Numbered from the stretch's first letter, positions 1,326-52,965 are shown. The stretch: DNA of 64,000 bases from Candidatus Parcubacteria bacterium (GCA_019661785.1 JAIFWP010000001.1:11545-75544); one strand, 5' to 3'. Numbers and translations: made by a program. Notes: generated by a model not told the origin, from the letters alone.

Positions 1326-3947
1326 ATGGTCATCTACGTAACAAAGCGCGACGGCACCAAAATGCCTTGGAATGCCGACTATATCAACCGCTCCATCGAG
1401 CGAGAGACCAAGGGTCTGCCTGACCCGATATCGAAGGTCATCCAGATAGCGAACGACACCCGCCTCACTGTCTACGATGGCATCACGACAGACGCCATGG
1501 ACCAGGCGACTATCAACGCGGCAATACAAAACATCAAAGATGATCCTGATTTCGATAAGGTTGCTACACGCCTCTTCCTCAAGACTATATATAAGAAGGT
1601 TCTTGGCTGGTACGCTACCGACGACAGAGCCGAGCTTGAAGTAAGCCACCGAAACGGGTTTATAAAGTATGTAGAGGAGGGAGTGGCTGGCGGCCGCTTG
1701 CATCCAAACATGAAGGAGAAGTTCGACCTCGAACGCATCGCTGATGCTCTCAGGCTTGAACGCGACGACCTCTTCCTCTACTCTGGCGTCGACGGACTCA
1801 TAAACCGCTACGGCATCAAGGACTCAGAGCAGAGGCCTCTTGAGACTCCGCAGTACATCTTCATGCGCATAGCCATGGGCCTTTCCTACAATGAGAAAAA
1901 TCCTACAGAGTGGGCCATTCGCTTCTACGAGAAGATGTCTAAGCATGAGTACATAGCTGGCGGCTCGACTAACCTCGGTGCAGGCACAGTGCGCTCAGCG
2001 CTCTCGAACTGCTTCCTCCTAGAAATCCACGACAACATGGAGCACATCGCGAAGTCTGTCTCAGATGTGATGCTCCTCTCCAAGGGTTCTGGCGGTCTCG
2101 GCGCCTCAGTGACCAAGCTCCGCGCTGCAGGCTCGCCTCTGAAGTCGAATTTCGGCGGCGCCTCTACTGGACCAGTGACCTTCGCCAAGGTTATCGACAC
2201 CGCCATCCGCGCTATACAGAGAGGAGGCAAGAAGAAGGGCGCTCTCTGCTTCTACATGGAGAACTGGCACCTCGATTTCCCTGACTTCCTCGACTGGAAG
2301 CACAATGCCGGAGACGACTACCTCCGCATGCGTACGGCGAACACCGCGGCCTTCATCTCAGATGAGTTCATGAAGAGGGTTAAGGCCGGCGAGGACTGGT
2401 ATCTCTTTGACCCAGCAGAGACAGGTGACCTTAACGAGATATACGGCAAAGTCTTCTCTAAGCGCTACAACGACTATGTGGAGATGGCTGAGAGAGGCGA
2501 GATGAGGCAGTTCAAGAAGATGCCTGCCAAGGAGCTCTGGAGGAAGATGCTCGTAGCTCTCCAGACCACCTCGCACCCTTGGATAACCTGGAAGGATCCT
2601 ATAAACCTCCGCGCGCTGAACAACAACACCGGCACTATACATATGTCGAACCTGTGCACGGAGATATGCCTCCCTCAGGACAAAGACAACATCGCTGTCT
2701 GCAACCTCGCATCACTTAACCTCGCCGCTCACGTCTCAGAGAAGCAGGTTAACTGGCAGCGTTTAGAGGAGTCGGTCCGCTTGGCTGTCCGCCAGCTCGA
2801 CAACCTTATAGATATTAATAAGCTCTCAGTGCCTGAGGCAGAGAGAAGCGACAAGGAGAATCGCGCAGTCGGCCTCGGCGTCATGGGTCTCGCAGATGTC
2901 TTCGAACGACTAGGACTCGCTTACGACTCAGAGCATGCATACAACTTTGCTGACCGCATTTTCGAGTTCGTCTCGTACATGGCCATTGACGAGTCTGCTA
3001 GCCTCGCTCGCGAGAGAGGCAGCTACAAGAACTTCGACGGCTCGCGTTGGTCTAAGGGTATGGTTCCTATCGACACTCTCGACCTCCTTGAGGAGAGGAG
3101 AGGGGTTAAGCTCACTGTCGACAAGACCTCGCACCACAAAGGCCTCGACTGGAATATCCTCCGAGAGAAGGTGAAGGGAGGTATCAGGAACGCCACTCTC
3201 ATGGCTGTCGCTCCGAACGCGAACATCGGCCTCGTCGTGGGCACAGTGCCGGGCATCGACGCGCGCTTCTCGCAAGTGTTTTCCCGCAACAAGATTTCTG
3301 GAAAGTATCTCGACATCAACCACAACCTCGTCCGCGATCTTAAGAACATGGACTTGTGGGAGAAGGTCAAAGAGCGCATCATCTCTCTCCAGGGCGACAT
3401 CTCAACTATCGAGGAAATACCAGAGCATGTGAGGAAGATTTACAAGACTTCCTTCACCACTTCTCCTTATGCTTATGTGGAGGTGGCTGCCAGAGCGCAG
3501 AAGTGGGTTGACCAAGCTCTCTCGCGCAACATGTACCTAGAGACCCGCGACATCGACGAGACTATGAACATCTACGAGGCAGCGTGGGAGAAGGGCGTAA
3601 AGACCACTTACTACTTGCACATGAAGCCTCGACACACGGCCGAGCAGTCGACTGTGGCAGTGAACAAGGCTCATGCTATGGGCAAGAAGGGCTTCGGCGC
3701 TCTTAGTGTGAAGCCAGCTGAGCCGACTGTGAGCGAGCCTGTTGTGGCCGAGGCAGCAGAGCCTGCCCCAGCTCCCGCTGCGGTAGTGCGCGAGCCCGCC
3801 CGCCTCGCAAGCGAGAGCGTTGCGGACAGGCCAGTACGTGTCGAGCGCGTTGAGAGTGAGCCAGTAGTCGTGGTAAAGTCGAGCGGTCTCAAGGTCCACA
3901 TGCCCGAGAATCCAGCCGATGCCAATATTTGTGACGATTGCCAATAA
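1326..3947 (+). CDS. nrdA: Ribonucleotide reductase class I large subunit with C-terminal low-complexity extension ending CDDCQ
   Basis: ATP-cone-like N-terminus (VTKRDGTKMPWNADYINRSIE). Active-site motif NLCTEI. C-terminal Pro/Ala/Glu-rich tail ending ...ICDDCQ*. Confidence 0.9.
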   Translation: MVIYVTKRDGTKMPWNADYINRSIERETKGLPDPISKVIQIANDTRLTVYDGITTDAMDQATINAAIQNIKDDPDFDKVATRLFLKTIYKKVLGWYATDDRAELEVSHRNGFIKYVEEGVAGGRLHPNMKEKFDLERIADALRLERDDLFLYSGVDGLINRYGIKDSEQRPLETPQYIFMRIAMGLSYNEKNPTEWAIRFYEKMSKHEYIAGGSTNLGAGTVRSALSNCFLLEIHDNMEHIAKSVSDVMLLSKGSGGLGASVTKLRAAGSPLKSNFGGASTGPVTFAKVIDTAIRAIQRGGKKKGALCFYMENWHLDFPDFLDWKHNAGDDYLRMRTANTAAFISDEFMKRVKAGEDWYLFDPAETGDLNEIYGKVFSKRYNDYVEMAERGEMRQFKKMPAKELWRKMLVALQTTSHPWITWKDPINLRALNNNTGTIHMSNLCTEICLPQDKDNIAVCNLASLNLAAHVSEKQVNWQRLEESVRLAVRQLDNLIDINKLSVPEAERSDKENRAVGLGVMGLADVFERLGLAYDSEHAYNFADRIFEFVSYMAIDESASLARERGSYKNFDGSRWSKGMVPIDTLDLLEERRGVKLTVDKTSHHKGLDWNILREKVKGGIRNATLMAVAPNANIGLVVGTVPGIDARFSQVFSRNKISGKYLDINHNLVRDLKNMDLWEKVKERIISLQGDISTIEEIPEHVRKIYKTSFTTSPYAYVEVAARAQKWVDQALSRNMYLETRDIDETMNIYEAAWEKGVKTTYYLHMKPRHTAEQSTVAVNKAHAMGKKGFGALSVKPAEPTVSEPVVAEAAEPAPAPAAVVREPARLASESVADRPVRVERVESEPVVVVKSSGLKVHMPENPADANICDDCQ

Positions 3948-15766: not shown

Positions 15767-16042
15767 ATGAAGAAAGGAATACACGCCAAGGAGTACCGCC
15801 CAGTCCTCTTCAAGGACAACGGCAATGGTACCGAATACATCATCCCTTCCACGGTAGCTACCAAGGAGGAGGCCAAGGCTAAGGATGGCAAGACCTATCC
15901 GCTCTTCCGCGTGGAAATCTCCTCTTCCTCGCACCCTTTCTACACCGGACAGGAGAAGGTCCTCGACTCCGCTGGCCGCGTCGAACGCTTCAAGCAGAAG
16001 CAGGCCAAAGCGGGTACTAAGAAAACCAAGAGCGGAAAATAG
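15767..16042 (+). CDS. rpmE: Ribosomal protein L31 (Cys-less type B)
   Basis: [10 protein letters not shown]...GRVERF with no CxxC zinc motif. Confidence 0.88.
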
Positions 16043-16197: not shown

Positions 16198-17157
16198 ATG
16201 AATCCCGATATCCAAAGATACAAAGACAACCCTCGCACTGCGTACATCGCGGATACTTTGGTGCGCCTTTTGGATGAAGAGACGGAGACGAAGAAGATGC
16301 TCGCGGATGAGAGTATGAAGGCCATGGCTGAGGACGAGCTCGCCCGCATAGAGATCGAGAAGCAAGCTGTCATAAAGGAGATGGACGAGATACTCAAAGC
16401 GGAGGAGAAGGAGGAAGAGTTCCCAAACGAAGTCATCCTCGAGGTCCGTGCCGGTGCTGGAGGCGATGAGGCATCGCTCTTCGCCAAGGAGCTCGCTGAT
16501 ATGTACCGCGGATATGCCAAGCTCGTAGGTTGGGGAGTAGAGCCCTTGGATGAGTCGCTCTCTAGTGCTGGTGGATACAAGGAAGCGAGCTTCGAGATAC
16601 GCGGACTAGATGTATATAAGAAGCTCCGCTTCGAGACAGGGGTGCACCGCATACAGCGAGTGCCGGATACGGAGAAGATGGGCCGAGTCCATACCTCCAC
16701 GGCCTCGGTAGCCATACTCCCTTTGCGTAAGAGGACGACGATAGAGATAAAGCCGTCTGACATCGAGATAGAGACCTCCCGCTCGGGCGGGGCAGGCGGG
16801 CAAAATGTGAACAAGGTCGAGACTGCCGTGCGCATCATCCACAAGGCTACCGGCATAGACGTGCGTTCGACCTCGCAGAGGAGCCAGCTTAAGAATAGGG
16901 AAGCCGCCATGAGTATCCTCCTTGCTAAACTCCAAGCCAAGAAGGACGAGGAGGAAGCTGCCAAGTACTCAGGCGAGCGCAAAAGCCAAATAGGTACTGC
17001 GGATAGGTCTGAGAAGATACGCACCTACAACATCCTCCAAGACCGCATTACCGACCACCGTATCAAGCAGGATTGGCACAATATCGAGAAGATATTCCAG
17101 GGCTATATGGAGCCAATAATCGACGCCCTGCAAGCAGAAAACGACAAATCTGCTTGA
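16198..17157 (+). CDS. prfA: Peptide chain release factor 1
   Basis: GGQ motif ([17 protein letters not shown]) and PDT tripeptide at the RF1 PxT position. Confidence 0.9.
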
Positions 17158-17159
17158 CA

Positions 17160-17545
17160 TTACTGTTGAGCTATGATAGAGTGAAAGAGTACAGGCGATC
17201 CTCGGCTTGCACTGAGTCCGTAAGGACAAGATAGTGGAACAGGGGCAACTCTGGGTGGCCCGGTGCCCAGAGCCAATAGGGGGCTAGTCTCCGACACGAT
17301 ACCCAAAGTCGGGGATGAAATGGGTAAGGCCCAGCGTCGCTGCGTTGGGAACACCGAAATATCAGCGCGTTCCGATGGGCATGCAGGATTGAGTCGACTC
17401 AGTCATGTGCCCATCGGGACGACAGTTCCTTTTTCACAATTCAACCGGAGATCGTCACGTGACGAGTCAACGGCTTCACCGGCCCCGCTTTGGCGGAGAC
17501 CCGTAGAAAACAACCCACGCTTACAAACGTGGGTTTTCTATTGCC
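17160..17545 (+). ncRNA. Candidate structured ncRNA (possible rnpB-like) with its own terminator
   Basis: About 385 nt gene-free with multiple stable hairpins (17248-17271, 17382-17428, 17453-17464). aaagUcgggg (17316-25) is complementary to ccccgcttt (17478-86) with a single bulged U, as in RNase P helix P4. GAUGAAAUGGGUAAGG resembles CR-II/III. It ends in a strong terminator before rpsB. Confidence 0.3.
17512..17540 (+). terminator. Rho-independent terminator upstream of rpsB
   Basis: aacccacg-cttacaaa-cgtgggtt followed by ttct. Confidence 0.65.
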
Positions 17546-17595
17546 TAAGTTGCCAATCTGAGCCCTTTTTGGTACTATTGTGAACGCACTAATAA

Positions 17596-18309
17596 ATGGC
17601 TACCAACACCAAAAACGGCGGATTGATAGATGAGCTCTTCAAGGCGGGAGCTCATTTCGGCTTTGTCAAAAGCCGCCGCCACCCCTCCGCCAAGCCCTTC
17701 ATCTTCGGAGAGAAGGATAAGGTCGAAATCTTCGACCTAGAGAAGACTTCAGAGGCGCTTGTGAAGGCACAGACCTTCCTCGAGGAGAAGGGCAAGGAAA
17801 ATGCTCTCATCCTCATCGTCGGCGGCAAGTCTGAGGCTCGCGAGGCCGTCAAGGCTTCCGGCAGAGAGCTTGGTATGCCCTTCGTCGCTGGTCGCTGGAT
17901 AGGCGGCACTCTCACGAACTACTCCGAGATAAAGAAGCGCATCCAGAAGCTCGAAGACCTCACCACTCAGCGCGAGAAGGGCGAGCTAGGCAAGTACACC
18001 AAGAAGGAGCGTCTTTTGATTGATAGAGAGATAGACCGTCTCACTCTCTACTTCAGTGGTCTCTCGACCTTGAAGTCTCTTCCTAAGGTCCTCCTCGTCG
18101 TCGACCCTAAGCGTGAGCACATCGCTGTGTCTGAGGCTAAGCAGCTCCGCATCCCAGTCGTGGCTGTCGCTGGCTCTGACAACAACCTCTTCGAGGTGAA
18201 CTACGCTGTGCCTTGTAACGACGCCTCACAGCACTCTGTATCGTTTATAATGAAGAAGCTTGTCGAGGCTTACAAAGCTGGCAAGGCATCCATAAAGAAG
18301 GAGGAATAA
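17596..18309 (+). CDS. rpsB: Ribosomal protein S2
   Basis: GAHFGFVKSRRHPSAKPFIFG and the rest of the S2 fold. 237 aa. Confidence 0.95.
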   Translation: MATNTKNGGLIDELFKAGAHFGFVKSRRHPSAKPFIFGEKDKVEIFDLEKTSEALVKAQTFLEEKGKENALILIVGGKSEAREAVKASGRELGMPFVAGRWIGGTLTNYSEIKKRIQKLEDLTTQREKGELGKYTKKERLLIDREIDRLTLYFSGLSTLKSLPKVLLVVDPKREHIAVSEAKQLRIPVVAVAGSDNNLFEVNYAVPCNDASQHSVSFIMKKLVEAYKAGKASIKKEE

Positions 18310-18314
18310 AAGTA

Positions 18315-18776
18315 ATGACCGATATTACCACAGCTGACATCAAGGCCCTTCGCGAGGAGACAGGTCTCTCCATCGCTGAGTGCCGCAAGGCTCTCGAGGA
18401 GTCTAAGGGCGACAAGGCCGGAGCCCTTGAAATACTCAAGAATAGGAGCGTCGAGATAGCAGCCAAGAAGGGTGACCGAGCCCTCGGCTCTGGCACTGTA
18501 GCGAGCTACATCCACAATGCTGGTGCCTCAGGCACTTTGGTCGAGCTCTCATGCGAGACGGACTTCGTCTCGAAGAACGAAGAGTTCAAGAACATCGCCC
18601 GAGATATTGCTCTTCACATCGCAGCCATGAATCCAACGGACGTCTCAGAGCTCCTCACCCAGCCCTTTGTGAAGAGTCCCGACAAAACCATCCAGGACGT
18701 AGTGAACGGCGTTATACAGAAGTTCGGCGAGCGCACAGAGATACGCCGCTTCGCCCGATTCGCTGTCTCGGAGTAG
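18315..18776 (+). CDS. tsf: Elongation factor Ts (short form)
   Basis: N-terminal UBA-like TADIKALREETGLSIAECRKAL and SYIHNAGASGTLVELSCETDFV. Classic rpsB-tsf linkage. Confidence 0.85.
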   Translation: MTDITTADIKALREETGLSIAECRKALEESKGDKAGALEILKNRSVEIAAKKGDRALGSGTVASYIHNAGASGTLVELSCETDFVSKNEEFKNIARDIALHIAAMNPTDVSELLTQPFVKSPDKTIQDVVNGVIQKFGERTEIRRFARFAVSE

Positions 18777-52844: not shown

Positions 52845-52922
52845 CAGCTATCCCATCGGGCACTATGAGTTAAGCTTGGGTATTATATACCATATATATG
52901 TCCTTGTCAAGTTATAAAGAAA

Positions 52923-52953
52923 GGGCGGACCTGTGAGGGTCCGCCGTTTTGTT
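52923..52953. terminator. Hairpin terminator
   Basis: ggcggacc-tgtgag-ggtccgcc then gttttgtt. Confidence 0.55.
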
Positions 52954-52965
52954 ACTGCTGTGGAG

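Follow-up and report, generated by a model that had tools for sequence, protein, structure and literature searches.

Type I 3′-end sRNAs, of which DapZ and MicL of enterobacteria are examples, are transcribed from a promoter of their own, located where the upstream coding gene ends, and share its terminator. At the position considered here, one described system is the rpsB-tsf leader of Escherichia coli, which is bound by ribosomal protein S2. For the CPR/Patescibacteria, to our knowledge, regulatory and accessory RNAs are nearly uncharted, and such small genomes are considered to have hardly any space for them. We analyzed a stretch of 64,000 nucleotides (“the window”) from a Parcubacteria (Paceibacteria) genome, in which rpmE, prfA, rpsB, and tsf occur in the order that is kept across dozens of Patescibacteria genomes; the prfA-rpsB gap, usually 10 to 130 nt in those genomes, measures 438 nt in the window (positions 17158 to 17595). 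Judging from sequence comparisons, we give somewhat better than even odds (a probability of about 0.55) to the reading that this gap is a gene in its own right, encoding a structured small RNA (sRNA) of ~355 nt, which would be clade-restricted, fast-evolving, and accessory. In kind, this would be an ordinary bacterial sRNA gene, transcribed from a promoter that lies where the preceding gene stops. Like the DapZ/MicL type, its promoter overlaps the end of the upstream coding sequence and its terminator would also end the upstream mRNA, and a short element is conserved in a fast-evolving RNA that is non-coding and restricted to one lineage. Unlike that type, the window family is much longer and carries multiple hairpins (190 to 355 nt), neither a seed nor a target was found for it, its CPR host is largely devoid of Shine-Dalgarno (SD) sites, and its presence varies between near-identical strains.

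The promoter at the prfA stop codon and the terminator at the other end of the gap together give it the predicted layout of a complete transcription unit of ~355 nt (Table 1). Transcription of the sRNA would start at a near-consensus σ70-type promoter (TTGACA-17-TGaTAGAGT, 17154 to 17182, identified by its match to the consensus), whose −35 hexamer overlaps the prfA stop, and would stop at an intrinsic terminator; the rpsB promoter begins ~5 nt past the tail of this terminator. The same terminator would presumably also end read-through from rpmE-prfA, the RNA then doubling as the 3′UTR of prfA. A preliminary description of this region had already proposed a terminator of its own before rpsB, and a hairpin followed by a T-run is indeed found there; both promoters (17154 to 17182 and 17550 to 17578) were absent from that description. 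It had also stated that no plausible ORF covers the region, which agrees with our results: the gap contains ORFs of 106 aa (plus strand) and 64 aa (minus strand), both without a Pfam match, and neither tblastx nor ORF inspection found peptide conservation among the homologous cassettes described below. What the sequence predicts is thus what an independent sRNA gene should have, namely, a promoter and a terminator around a non-coding body.

Table 1. Features of the prfA-rpsB locus in the window, cassettes at the same position in related loci, and related loci without a cassette
Feature	Position	Strand	Basis or remark
rpmE	15767–16042		
prfA	16198–17157		stop codon TGA 17155–17157
RNA promoter, −35 hexamer TTGACA	17154–17159	+	10/12 match together with −10, 17-nt spacer; overlaps prfA stop
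RNA promoter, extended −10 TGaTAGAGT	17174–17182 (hexamer 17177–17182)	+	TG precedes second hexamer
Predicted primary transcript, ~355 nt	17189–17545	+	promoter and terminator bounds; 5′ end inferred ~7 nt past −10
5′ domain	17258–17374	+	locally similar to 5′ part of L167 cassette
Core long hairpin GUUCCGAUGGG...CCCAUCGGGAC	17369–17420	+	covariance-model match with conserved flanks 17356–17444
Weak terminator-like hairpin GGGAC-GACA-GUUCC + U5	17416–17434	+	competes with base of core stem
Last body hairpin GAUCGUC-ACGU-GACGAGUC, after CAACCGGAG	17450–17468	+	MFE and centroid folds
CCCCGCTTT, 3′ strand of supposed P4	17483–17491	+	segment missing from L081 and L165
Intrinsic terminator, hairpin AACCCACG...CGTGGGTT (17512–17535), then T-rich tail	17512–17545	+	scan and MFE
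rpsB promoter TTGCCA-17-TACTAT	17550–17578	+	separate from the RNA; context only
rpsB	17596–18309		
tsf	18315–18776		
Window cassette	17154–17545		reference for PrfA identity
L081 cassette	~2058–2385		PrfA 90% identical to window
L165 cassette	3503–3728		PrfA 79% identical to window
L166 cassette	2844–3090		PrfA 78% identical to window
L167 cassette	2028–2262		PrfA 78% identical to window
L001 cassette	1897–~2137		PrfA 72% identical to window
Cassette-less loci			L082 (90%), L164 (81%), P0007 contig (81%), L006, L003, L171 (78%), L014

Several further observations concern the genomic context. Leaderless or very-short-leader mRNAs may be the rule in this organism, as the window sequence suggests, and the rpsB leader would be ~11 nt long; an SD-like 4-mer lies upstream of only 5 of the 51 long-ORF genes in the window (versus a background of 22%), and −10-like hexamers are found within 20 nt of the ATG in many of these 51 genes. 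EF-Ts, encoded by the window's tsf, has only 153 aa, about half of the E. coli protein, and a 153-aa EF-Ts with PF00889 assigned is also present in L164, L171, and the P0007 contig. Elsewhere in the window, two sub-threshold Rfam matches were observed, one to the ribosomal protein L20 leader (52866 to 52958; 23 bits, gathering score 58.7, E = 3.8) and one to the trpB ncRNA motif (677 to 779; 32.7 bits, gathering score 59, E = 1.2).

The region had been called hairpin-dense, with long perfect stems, and this characterization was borne out. On the plus strand, the minimum free energy (MFE) is −149 kcal/mol (z = −4.8; minus strand, z = −3.3), the body of the window RNA without its terminator has an MFE z score of −4.2, and seven inverted 9-mers occur where 0.8 are expected, about ninefold over chance. 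All of the stems listed before were located, that is, CTCTGGG (17249) with CCCAGAG (17266), CCGATGGGCA (17372) with TGCCCATCGG (17408) around GAGTCGACTC (17391), and CGTCACGTGACG (17453). The tips of two hairpins (17391 to 17400 and 17453 to 17464) are perfect palindromes, GAGUCGACUC and CGUCACGUGACG, and their loops, UCGA and ACGU, are self-complementary, through which the RNA could dimerize by loop-loop contact. The weak terminator-like hairpin shares a strand with the core stem, namely, the 3′ strand of the latter, and its downstream GUUCC is identical to the 5′ strand of that stem; the two pairings are mutually exclusive. This GGGAC-GACA-GUUCC pairing is confined to the window copy and, as read from the sequences, is not conserved in L081 or L165. 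A layout of GGAG plus hairpin similar to that at 17450 to 17468 can be seen in L081 and L167, a likeness judged by inspection rather than by statistics.

Loci of relatives were gathered through searches with RpsB and PrfA. Six loci, including the window, share a promoter-RNA-terminator cassette between prfA and rpsB, and in the five relatives the cassette is 190 to 300 nt long. All six carriers have a prfA that ends in ...K(S/T/A)A with GCT TGA CA, an arrangement found in none of the cassette-less relatives, and a TGnTAnnnT element 16 to 17 nt past TTGACA. This extended −10 equivalent is present in L165, L166, L167, and L001; a promoter scanner reports the cassette promoter in five of the six carriers, and in L081, where the −10 hexamer TAAGCT falls under the scanner threshold, an element of the TGnTAnnnT type is recognizable by eye (TGATAAGCT). 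At the other end, each of the five other cassettes finishes in a stable hairpin and a U-tract just before the rpsB promoter. For all six bodies, taken without their terminators, folding is more stable than in dinucleotide shuffles (z = −4.2, −2.2, −5.3, −1.7, −5.4, and −2.8), and no Rfam family matched in the loci of the five relatives. As a side observation, all six cassette-bearing prfA genes stop at UGA, as the overlap with TTGACA forces them to, whereas those of cassette-less close relatives nearly all stop at UAA; UGA is not read by RF1 itself.

In sequence, the bodies of the cassettes have little in common. nhmmer and blastn searches with the insert against 80 to 170 related loci and against the window returned no matches, a six-way MAFFT alignment analyzed with RNAalifold gave no consensus structure, and leave-one-out profiles did not recover L001 and L166, so that the homology of all six bodies is putative. 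These negative results have to be seen against the divergence of the carriers: at the fourfold-degenerate sites of prfA, the window is only 0.35 to 0.52 identical to the other carriers, and unconstrained sequence is therefore expected to be scrambled. A core hairpin is common to the window (17356 to 17444), L165 (3563 to 3652), and L081 (2144 to 2242), although the fourfold-site identity of the window to either relative is 0.48 to 0.49. Its base follows the form GUUCCGA(N)GGG...CCC(N)UCGGGAC with conserved flanks, pairwise local alignments of the three sequences reach z = 4.7 to 13.5, and a search of related loci totaling 380 kb with a covariance model of the hairpin (R1) returned these three and no others. 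The 11 bp of the base comprise eight invariant pairs and one double change (U-A/G-C), with 97% of the cells paired; the covariation among three sequences is not significant, the observed score being reached by 160 of 500 shuffles. Above the base, the helix is extended by unrelated sequence in each lineage. The hairpin at 17249 to 17272 was considered as a second copy of the core, which model R1 did not support.

Other parts of the window RNA connect to other carriers. The 5′ domain aligns locally with L167 (z = 4.2, 0 of 200 shuffles), L001 and L167 have in common a 3′ hairpin before the terminator (CUCUC-loop-GAGAGUGAA(G)UCAUA, z = 4.3), and L166 is tied to the other carriers by position and promoter only. 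A UCGGG...CACA motif, apparently common to five of the RNAs, failed a leave-one-out test. In our reading, the cassette bodies may represent one family with mosaic retention of modules, and from the shared, unusual placement of the promoter we infer that the six bodies descend from a common ancestor.

The distribution of the cassette is patchy. It is missing in at least seven equally close relatives, judged at the prfA-rpsB locus only (a copy may lie elsewhere in those genomes), and the gap in these relatives is 23 to 75 nt and contains the rpsB promoter only; carriers amount to 6 among ~14 close relatives. The most informative pair is L081 and L082 (ENA contigs, positions 695 to 2535 and 1 to 1511, respectively), which are 100% identical in rpmE, in the first ~500 nt of prfA, and again in the rpsB promoter and the start of rpsB. 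In between, the last ~460 nt of prfA are 83 to 98% identical, and a cassette is present in L081 and not in L082. The pattern resembles the replacement of one allele by another through homologous recombination inside a single population. Because L082 lacks the cassette despite flanks that are 100% identical to those of a carrier, the organism can probably do without the RNA. When RpsB was used to look for relatives closer than L081, no match exceeded 79%, and a metagenome scan with PrfA returned, among the matches listed, relatives of at most 67% identity, with the core hairpin in none of them.

The prfA-rpsB spacer in Paceibacteria is, in general, an insertion hot spot. prmC-like ORFs lie there in L004 and L016, type IV pilin-like ORFs in L023 and L025, a gene for an RRM-type RNA-binding protein with a long leader in L088, L090, and L101, ~100-nt AT-rich near-perfect palindromes in L026 and L027, and 3.1 kb with a 628-aa ORF in L007. 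In L001, a Cys-rich ORF on the minus strand follows the cassette RNA.

The preliminary description had further suggested an RNase P-like RNA, with tmRNA, 6S RNA, or a novel RNA as fallbacks. Some features do recall bacterial RNase P RNA (RF00010/RF00011): the window RNA has a similar size, a 9-bp pairing with a bulged U (17305 to 17314 with 17483 to 17491), and a string reminiscent of GGGxUGAAAxGGGU...GGUAAG. The last resemblance is a loose one between GGGGAUGAAAUGGGUAAGG and the string GGGUGAAAGGGUG...GGUAAG of E. coli M1 RNA. In addition, no RNase P RNA was seen elsewhere in the 64-kb window. The supposed helix P4, however, does not withstand scrutiny. Its strands had been placed 5 to 11 nt off, at 17316 to 17325 and 17478 to 17486: AAAGTCGGGG lies at 17305 to 17314, and CCCCGCTTT is at the position given in Table 1. 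A long-range pairing of the same form (4 bp, a 1-nt bulge, and 5 bp) arises in 34% of shuffles of the region, and the pairing is therefore not beyond chance; it is also absent from the MFE and centroid folds, where GUCUCCGAC and GUCGGGGAU pair as a local hairpin instead. Neither strand is conserved in L081, L165, or L167. The 5′ strand sits upstream of everything that is alignable with L081 or L165; it falls within the 5′ domain, together with GATGAAATGGGTAAGG (17314 to 17329) from the preliminary description, and there AAAGUCGGGG aligns to AACGAUGGGU in L167, so that AAGUC is not conserved, and GAUGAAAUGGGUAAGG, likewise from that description, aligns to UAUAAAAUCGGUAGUG. The 3′ strand belongs to a stretch that is peculiar to the window copy, located past the last hairpin and ahead of the terminator.

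Searches with covariance models point in the same direction. No Rfam family matched the region at gathering score, and the RNase P, tmRNA, 6S, and SRP models remained without a match even at E ≤ 10 (about 11 bits or more in these searches of 366 to 601 nt), in the region as well as in the five homologous loci and across the window. What did match at E ≤ 10 consisted of terminator look-alikes and noise (11 to 23 bits) and, elsewhere in the window, of tRNA and noise. Lui et al. 2021 (PMC8172020) had to lower the RF00010 threshold to 5 bits for 10 of 35 circular CPR genomes, in which scores can be as low as that, and a negative Rfam result in the CPR is therefore not absolute; hence, it is the comparative evidence that carries the case against RNase P. 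Apart from the unconserved strands, homologous RNAs of 190 to 300 nt are hardly long enough to accommodate an RNase P catalytic domain, even a reduced one, and an essential RNA with a single gene copy would not be expected to be missing, as the cassette is, from at least seven close relatives, L082 among them. We regard the RNase P reading as largely refuted, and that any diverged or reduced housekeeping RNA (RNase P, 6S, tmRNA, or SRP) has escaped the standard models at this locus seems to us very improbable. Thus, from the preliminary description the structured non-coding RNA stands, on the strength of the promoter, the terminator, the folding, and the cassettes of five relatives, its RNase P likeness falls with the missing model matches and the chance-level P4, and its fallback of a novel RNA is the option that survives.

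Other known RNAs were considered in turn. ARAGORN reports only tRNA-Thr in the window, and neither it nor Rfam finds a tmRNA; no SRP model matches at E ≤ 10. Like 6S RNA, the cassette has its own promoter and terminator, is ~200 nt long in most relatives, lies among housekeeping genes, and has the low sequence conservation that is usual for 6S RNAs. Unlike 6S RNA, it is absent from many close relatives, no 6S model matches at E ≤ 10, and the six MFE folds are multi-branched series of hairpins without a rod or central bubble, a criterion that, judged on single-sequence MFE folds, is not decisive. A sponge of the CsrB/RsmZ type was rejected, with 33 GGA in the six RNAs versus 31 ± 4 from dinucleotide shuffles, and so was a regulator that pairs with the start of rpsB, for which complementarity did not exceed that of shuffles. 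An anti-SD seed in the CCUU tail was dropped, given that SD-like motifs precede no more than 5 of the 51 genes.

A coding function of the cassette can be set aside with similar assurance. mRNAs of type I toxins typically combine a strong promoter, a structured transcript of 200 to 350 nt, a patchy distribution, and fast divergence, and the cassette shows all of these, patchy between strains as it is; nevertheless, that it encodes a small protein, e.g., such a toxin with a heavily folded mRNA, is hardly credible. No ORF is conserved between cassettes by tblastx, Pfam gives no match, the 15-residue Kyte-Doolittle mean does not exceed 1.1 in any ORF of at least 12 aa, and the ATGs in the core loops of L081 and L165 read the conserved CCCUCGGGACGG in different frames. 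More weight attaches to a cis-acting role, in which the cassette would be either a structured 3′UTR of prfA that insulates rpsB-tsf or a long attenuator leader feeding into it. The absence of a terminator after prfA from cassette-less relatives, whose gaps of 23 to 75 nt hold the rpsB promoter only, means that a cassette would end rpmE-prfA transcripts and shield rpsB-tsf, thereby adding insulation. The leader version can point to the E. coli system, as in both cases a structured RNA lies directly upstream of rpsB-tsf, and to the weak alternative hairpin that competes with the core stem. Unlike in E. coli, however, a terminator and the conserved rpsB promoter (17550 to 17578) intervene between the RNA and the gene, no Rfam leader matches, and the RNA is missing in close relatives that keep the same rpsB promoter, an identical element being present in L081, L082, L164, and L165, i.e., with or without a cassette. 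With this promoter, the sole one in cassette-less genomes, downstream of the terminator and within ~5 nt of it, attenuation would matter little. Nor is there complementarity with the rpsB start or conservation of the alternative pairing in L081 and L165, and for mere insulation the terminator would do by itself, with a strong promoter and a structured body of 150 to 320 nt being superfluous. We therefore hold a purely cis-acting element to be unlikely.

A different objection is that the cassette might have no function at all and be a selfish or decaying remnant, inserted at a hot spot, equipped with a promoter and hairpins by chance, and spread by homologous recombination. The spacer of other Paceibacteria does accommodate many unrelated inserts (prmC, pilin-like, and RRM genes, palindromes, and a 3-kb insert), the cassette is polymorphic inside a recombination tract (L081/L082), the bodies are largely unalignable, and the patchy presence (6 of ~14 close relatives) is also what is expected of a neutral insertion. 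Against this, six lineages with saturated synonymous sites have retained the promoter (−35 and extended −10) and the terminator, all six bodies are more structured than shuffles, and the core hairpin is kept in three lineages. Moreover, the cassette has no second copy in the 64-kb window, BLAST against phage and plasmid sequences gave no match, and a scan of viral contigs with the core pattern gave only three chance matches, in high-GC coding DNA. By eye, there are no terminal inverted repeats, and tblastx found no likeness to the genes seen in the gap elsewhere, of which the cassette was also considered as a remnant. On balance, we find a functionless insert a doubtful account of the locus. 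The reading as an sRNA gene is the one that we prefer, because the promoter placement and the terminal hairpin with its U-tract are kept in five relatives (prfA 72 to 90%) and because the core hairpin is retained at fourfold-site identities of 0.48 to 0.49.

How might such an sRNA act? The family is always found at the prfA-rpsB position and is probably dispensable. Its functional element is likely the base of the hairpin at 17369 to 17420 (GUUCCGA.../...UCGGGAC) together with the 3′ tail, since only this part is kept across saturated synonymous divergence. We infer that the RNA would act in trans through the hairpin base and tail, which may be a protein-binding or an RNA-pairing site; no partner or target was found, and the rpsB start region shows no complementarity above shuffles. 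It is tempting to speculate that the cassettes constitute an undescribed class of structured RNAs of one Paceibacteria clade, highly expressed from the prfA-stop promoter, put together from hairpin modules that can be swapped, and passed from strain to strain by homologous recombination, with a dedicated partner, either a protein or an RNA, binding the GUUCCGA/UCGGGAC hairpin. We regard this fuller scenario as a long shot; if it were true, the RNA might, for example, serve in translation control or in the interaction of these ultra-small symbionts with their hosts.

The analysis also holds a lesson for the annotation of RNase P. Finding a “P4-like” pairing with a bulged U does not identify an RNA as RNase P, which matters because the RNase P RNAs of the CPR are diverged and still hunted for (PMC8172020). 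The cassette family itself has no Rfam match, and we found no description of it in RNase P-focused literature. Taken together, a unit that is kept at one locus through saturated divergence and yet varies between near-identical strains would offer a tractable first example; candidate sRNAs are rare in CPR bacteria, and this one would come with an informative presence/absence polymorphism.
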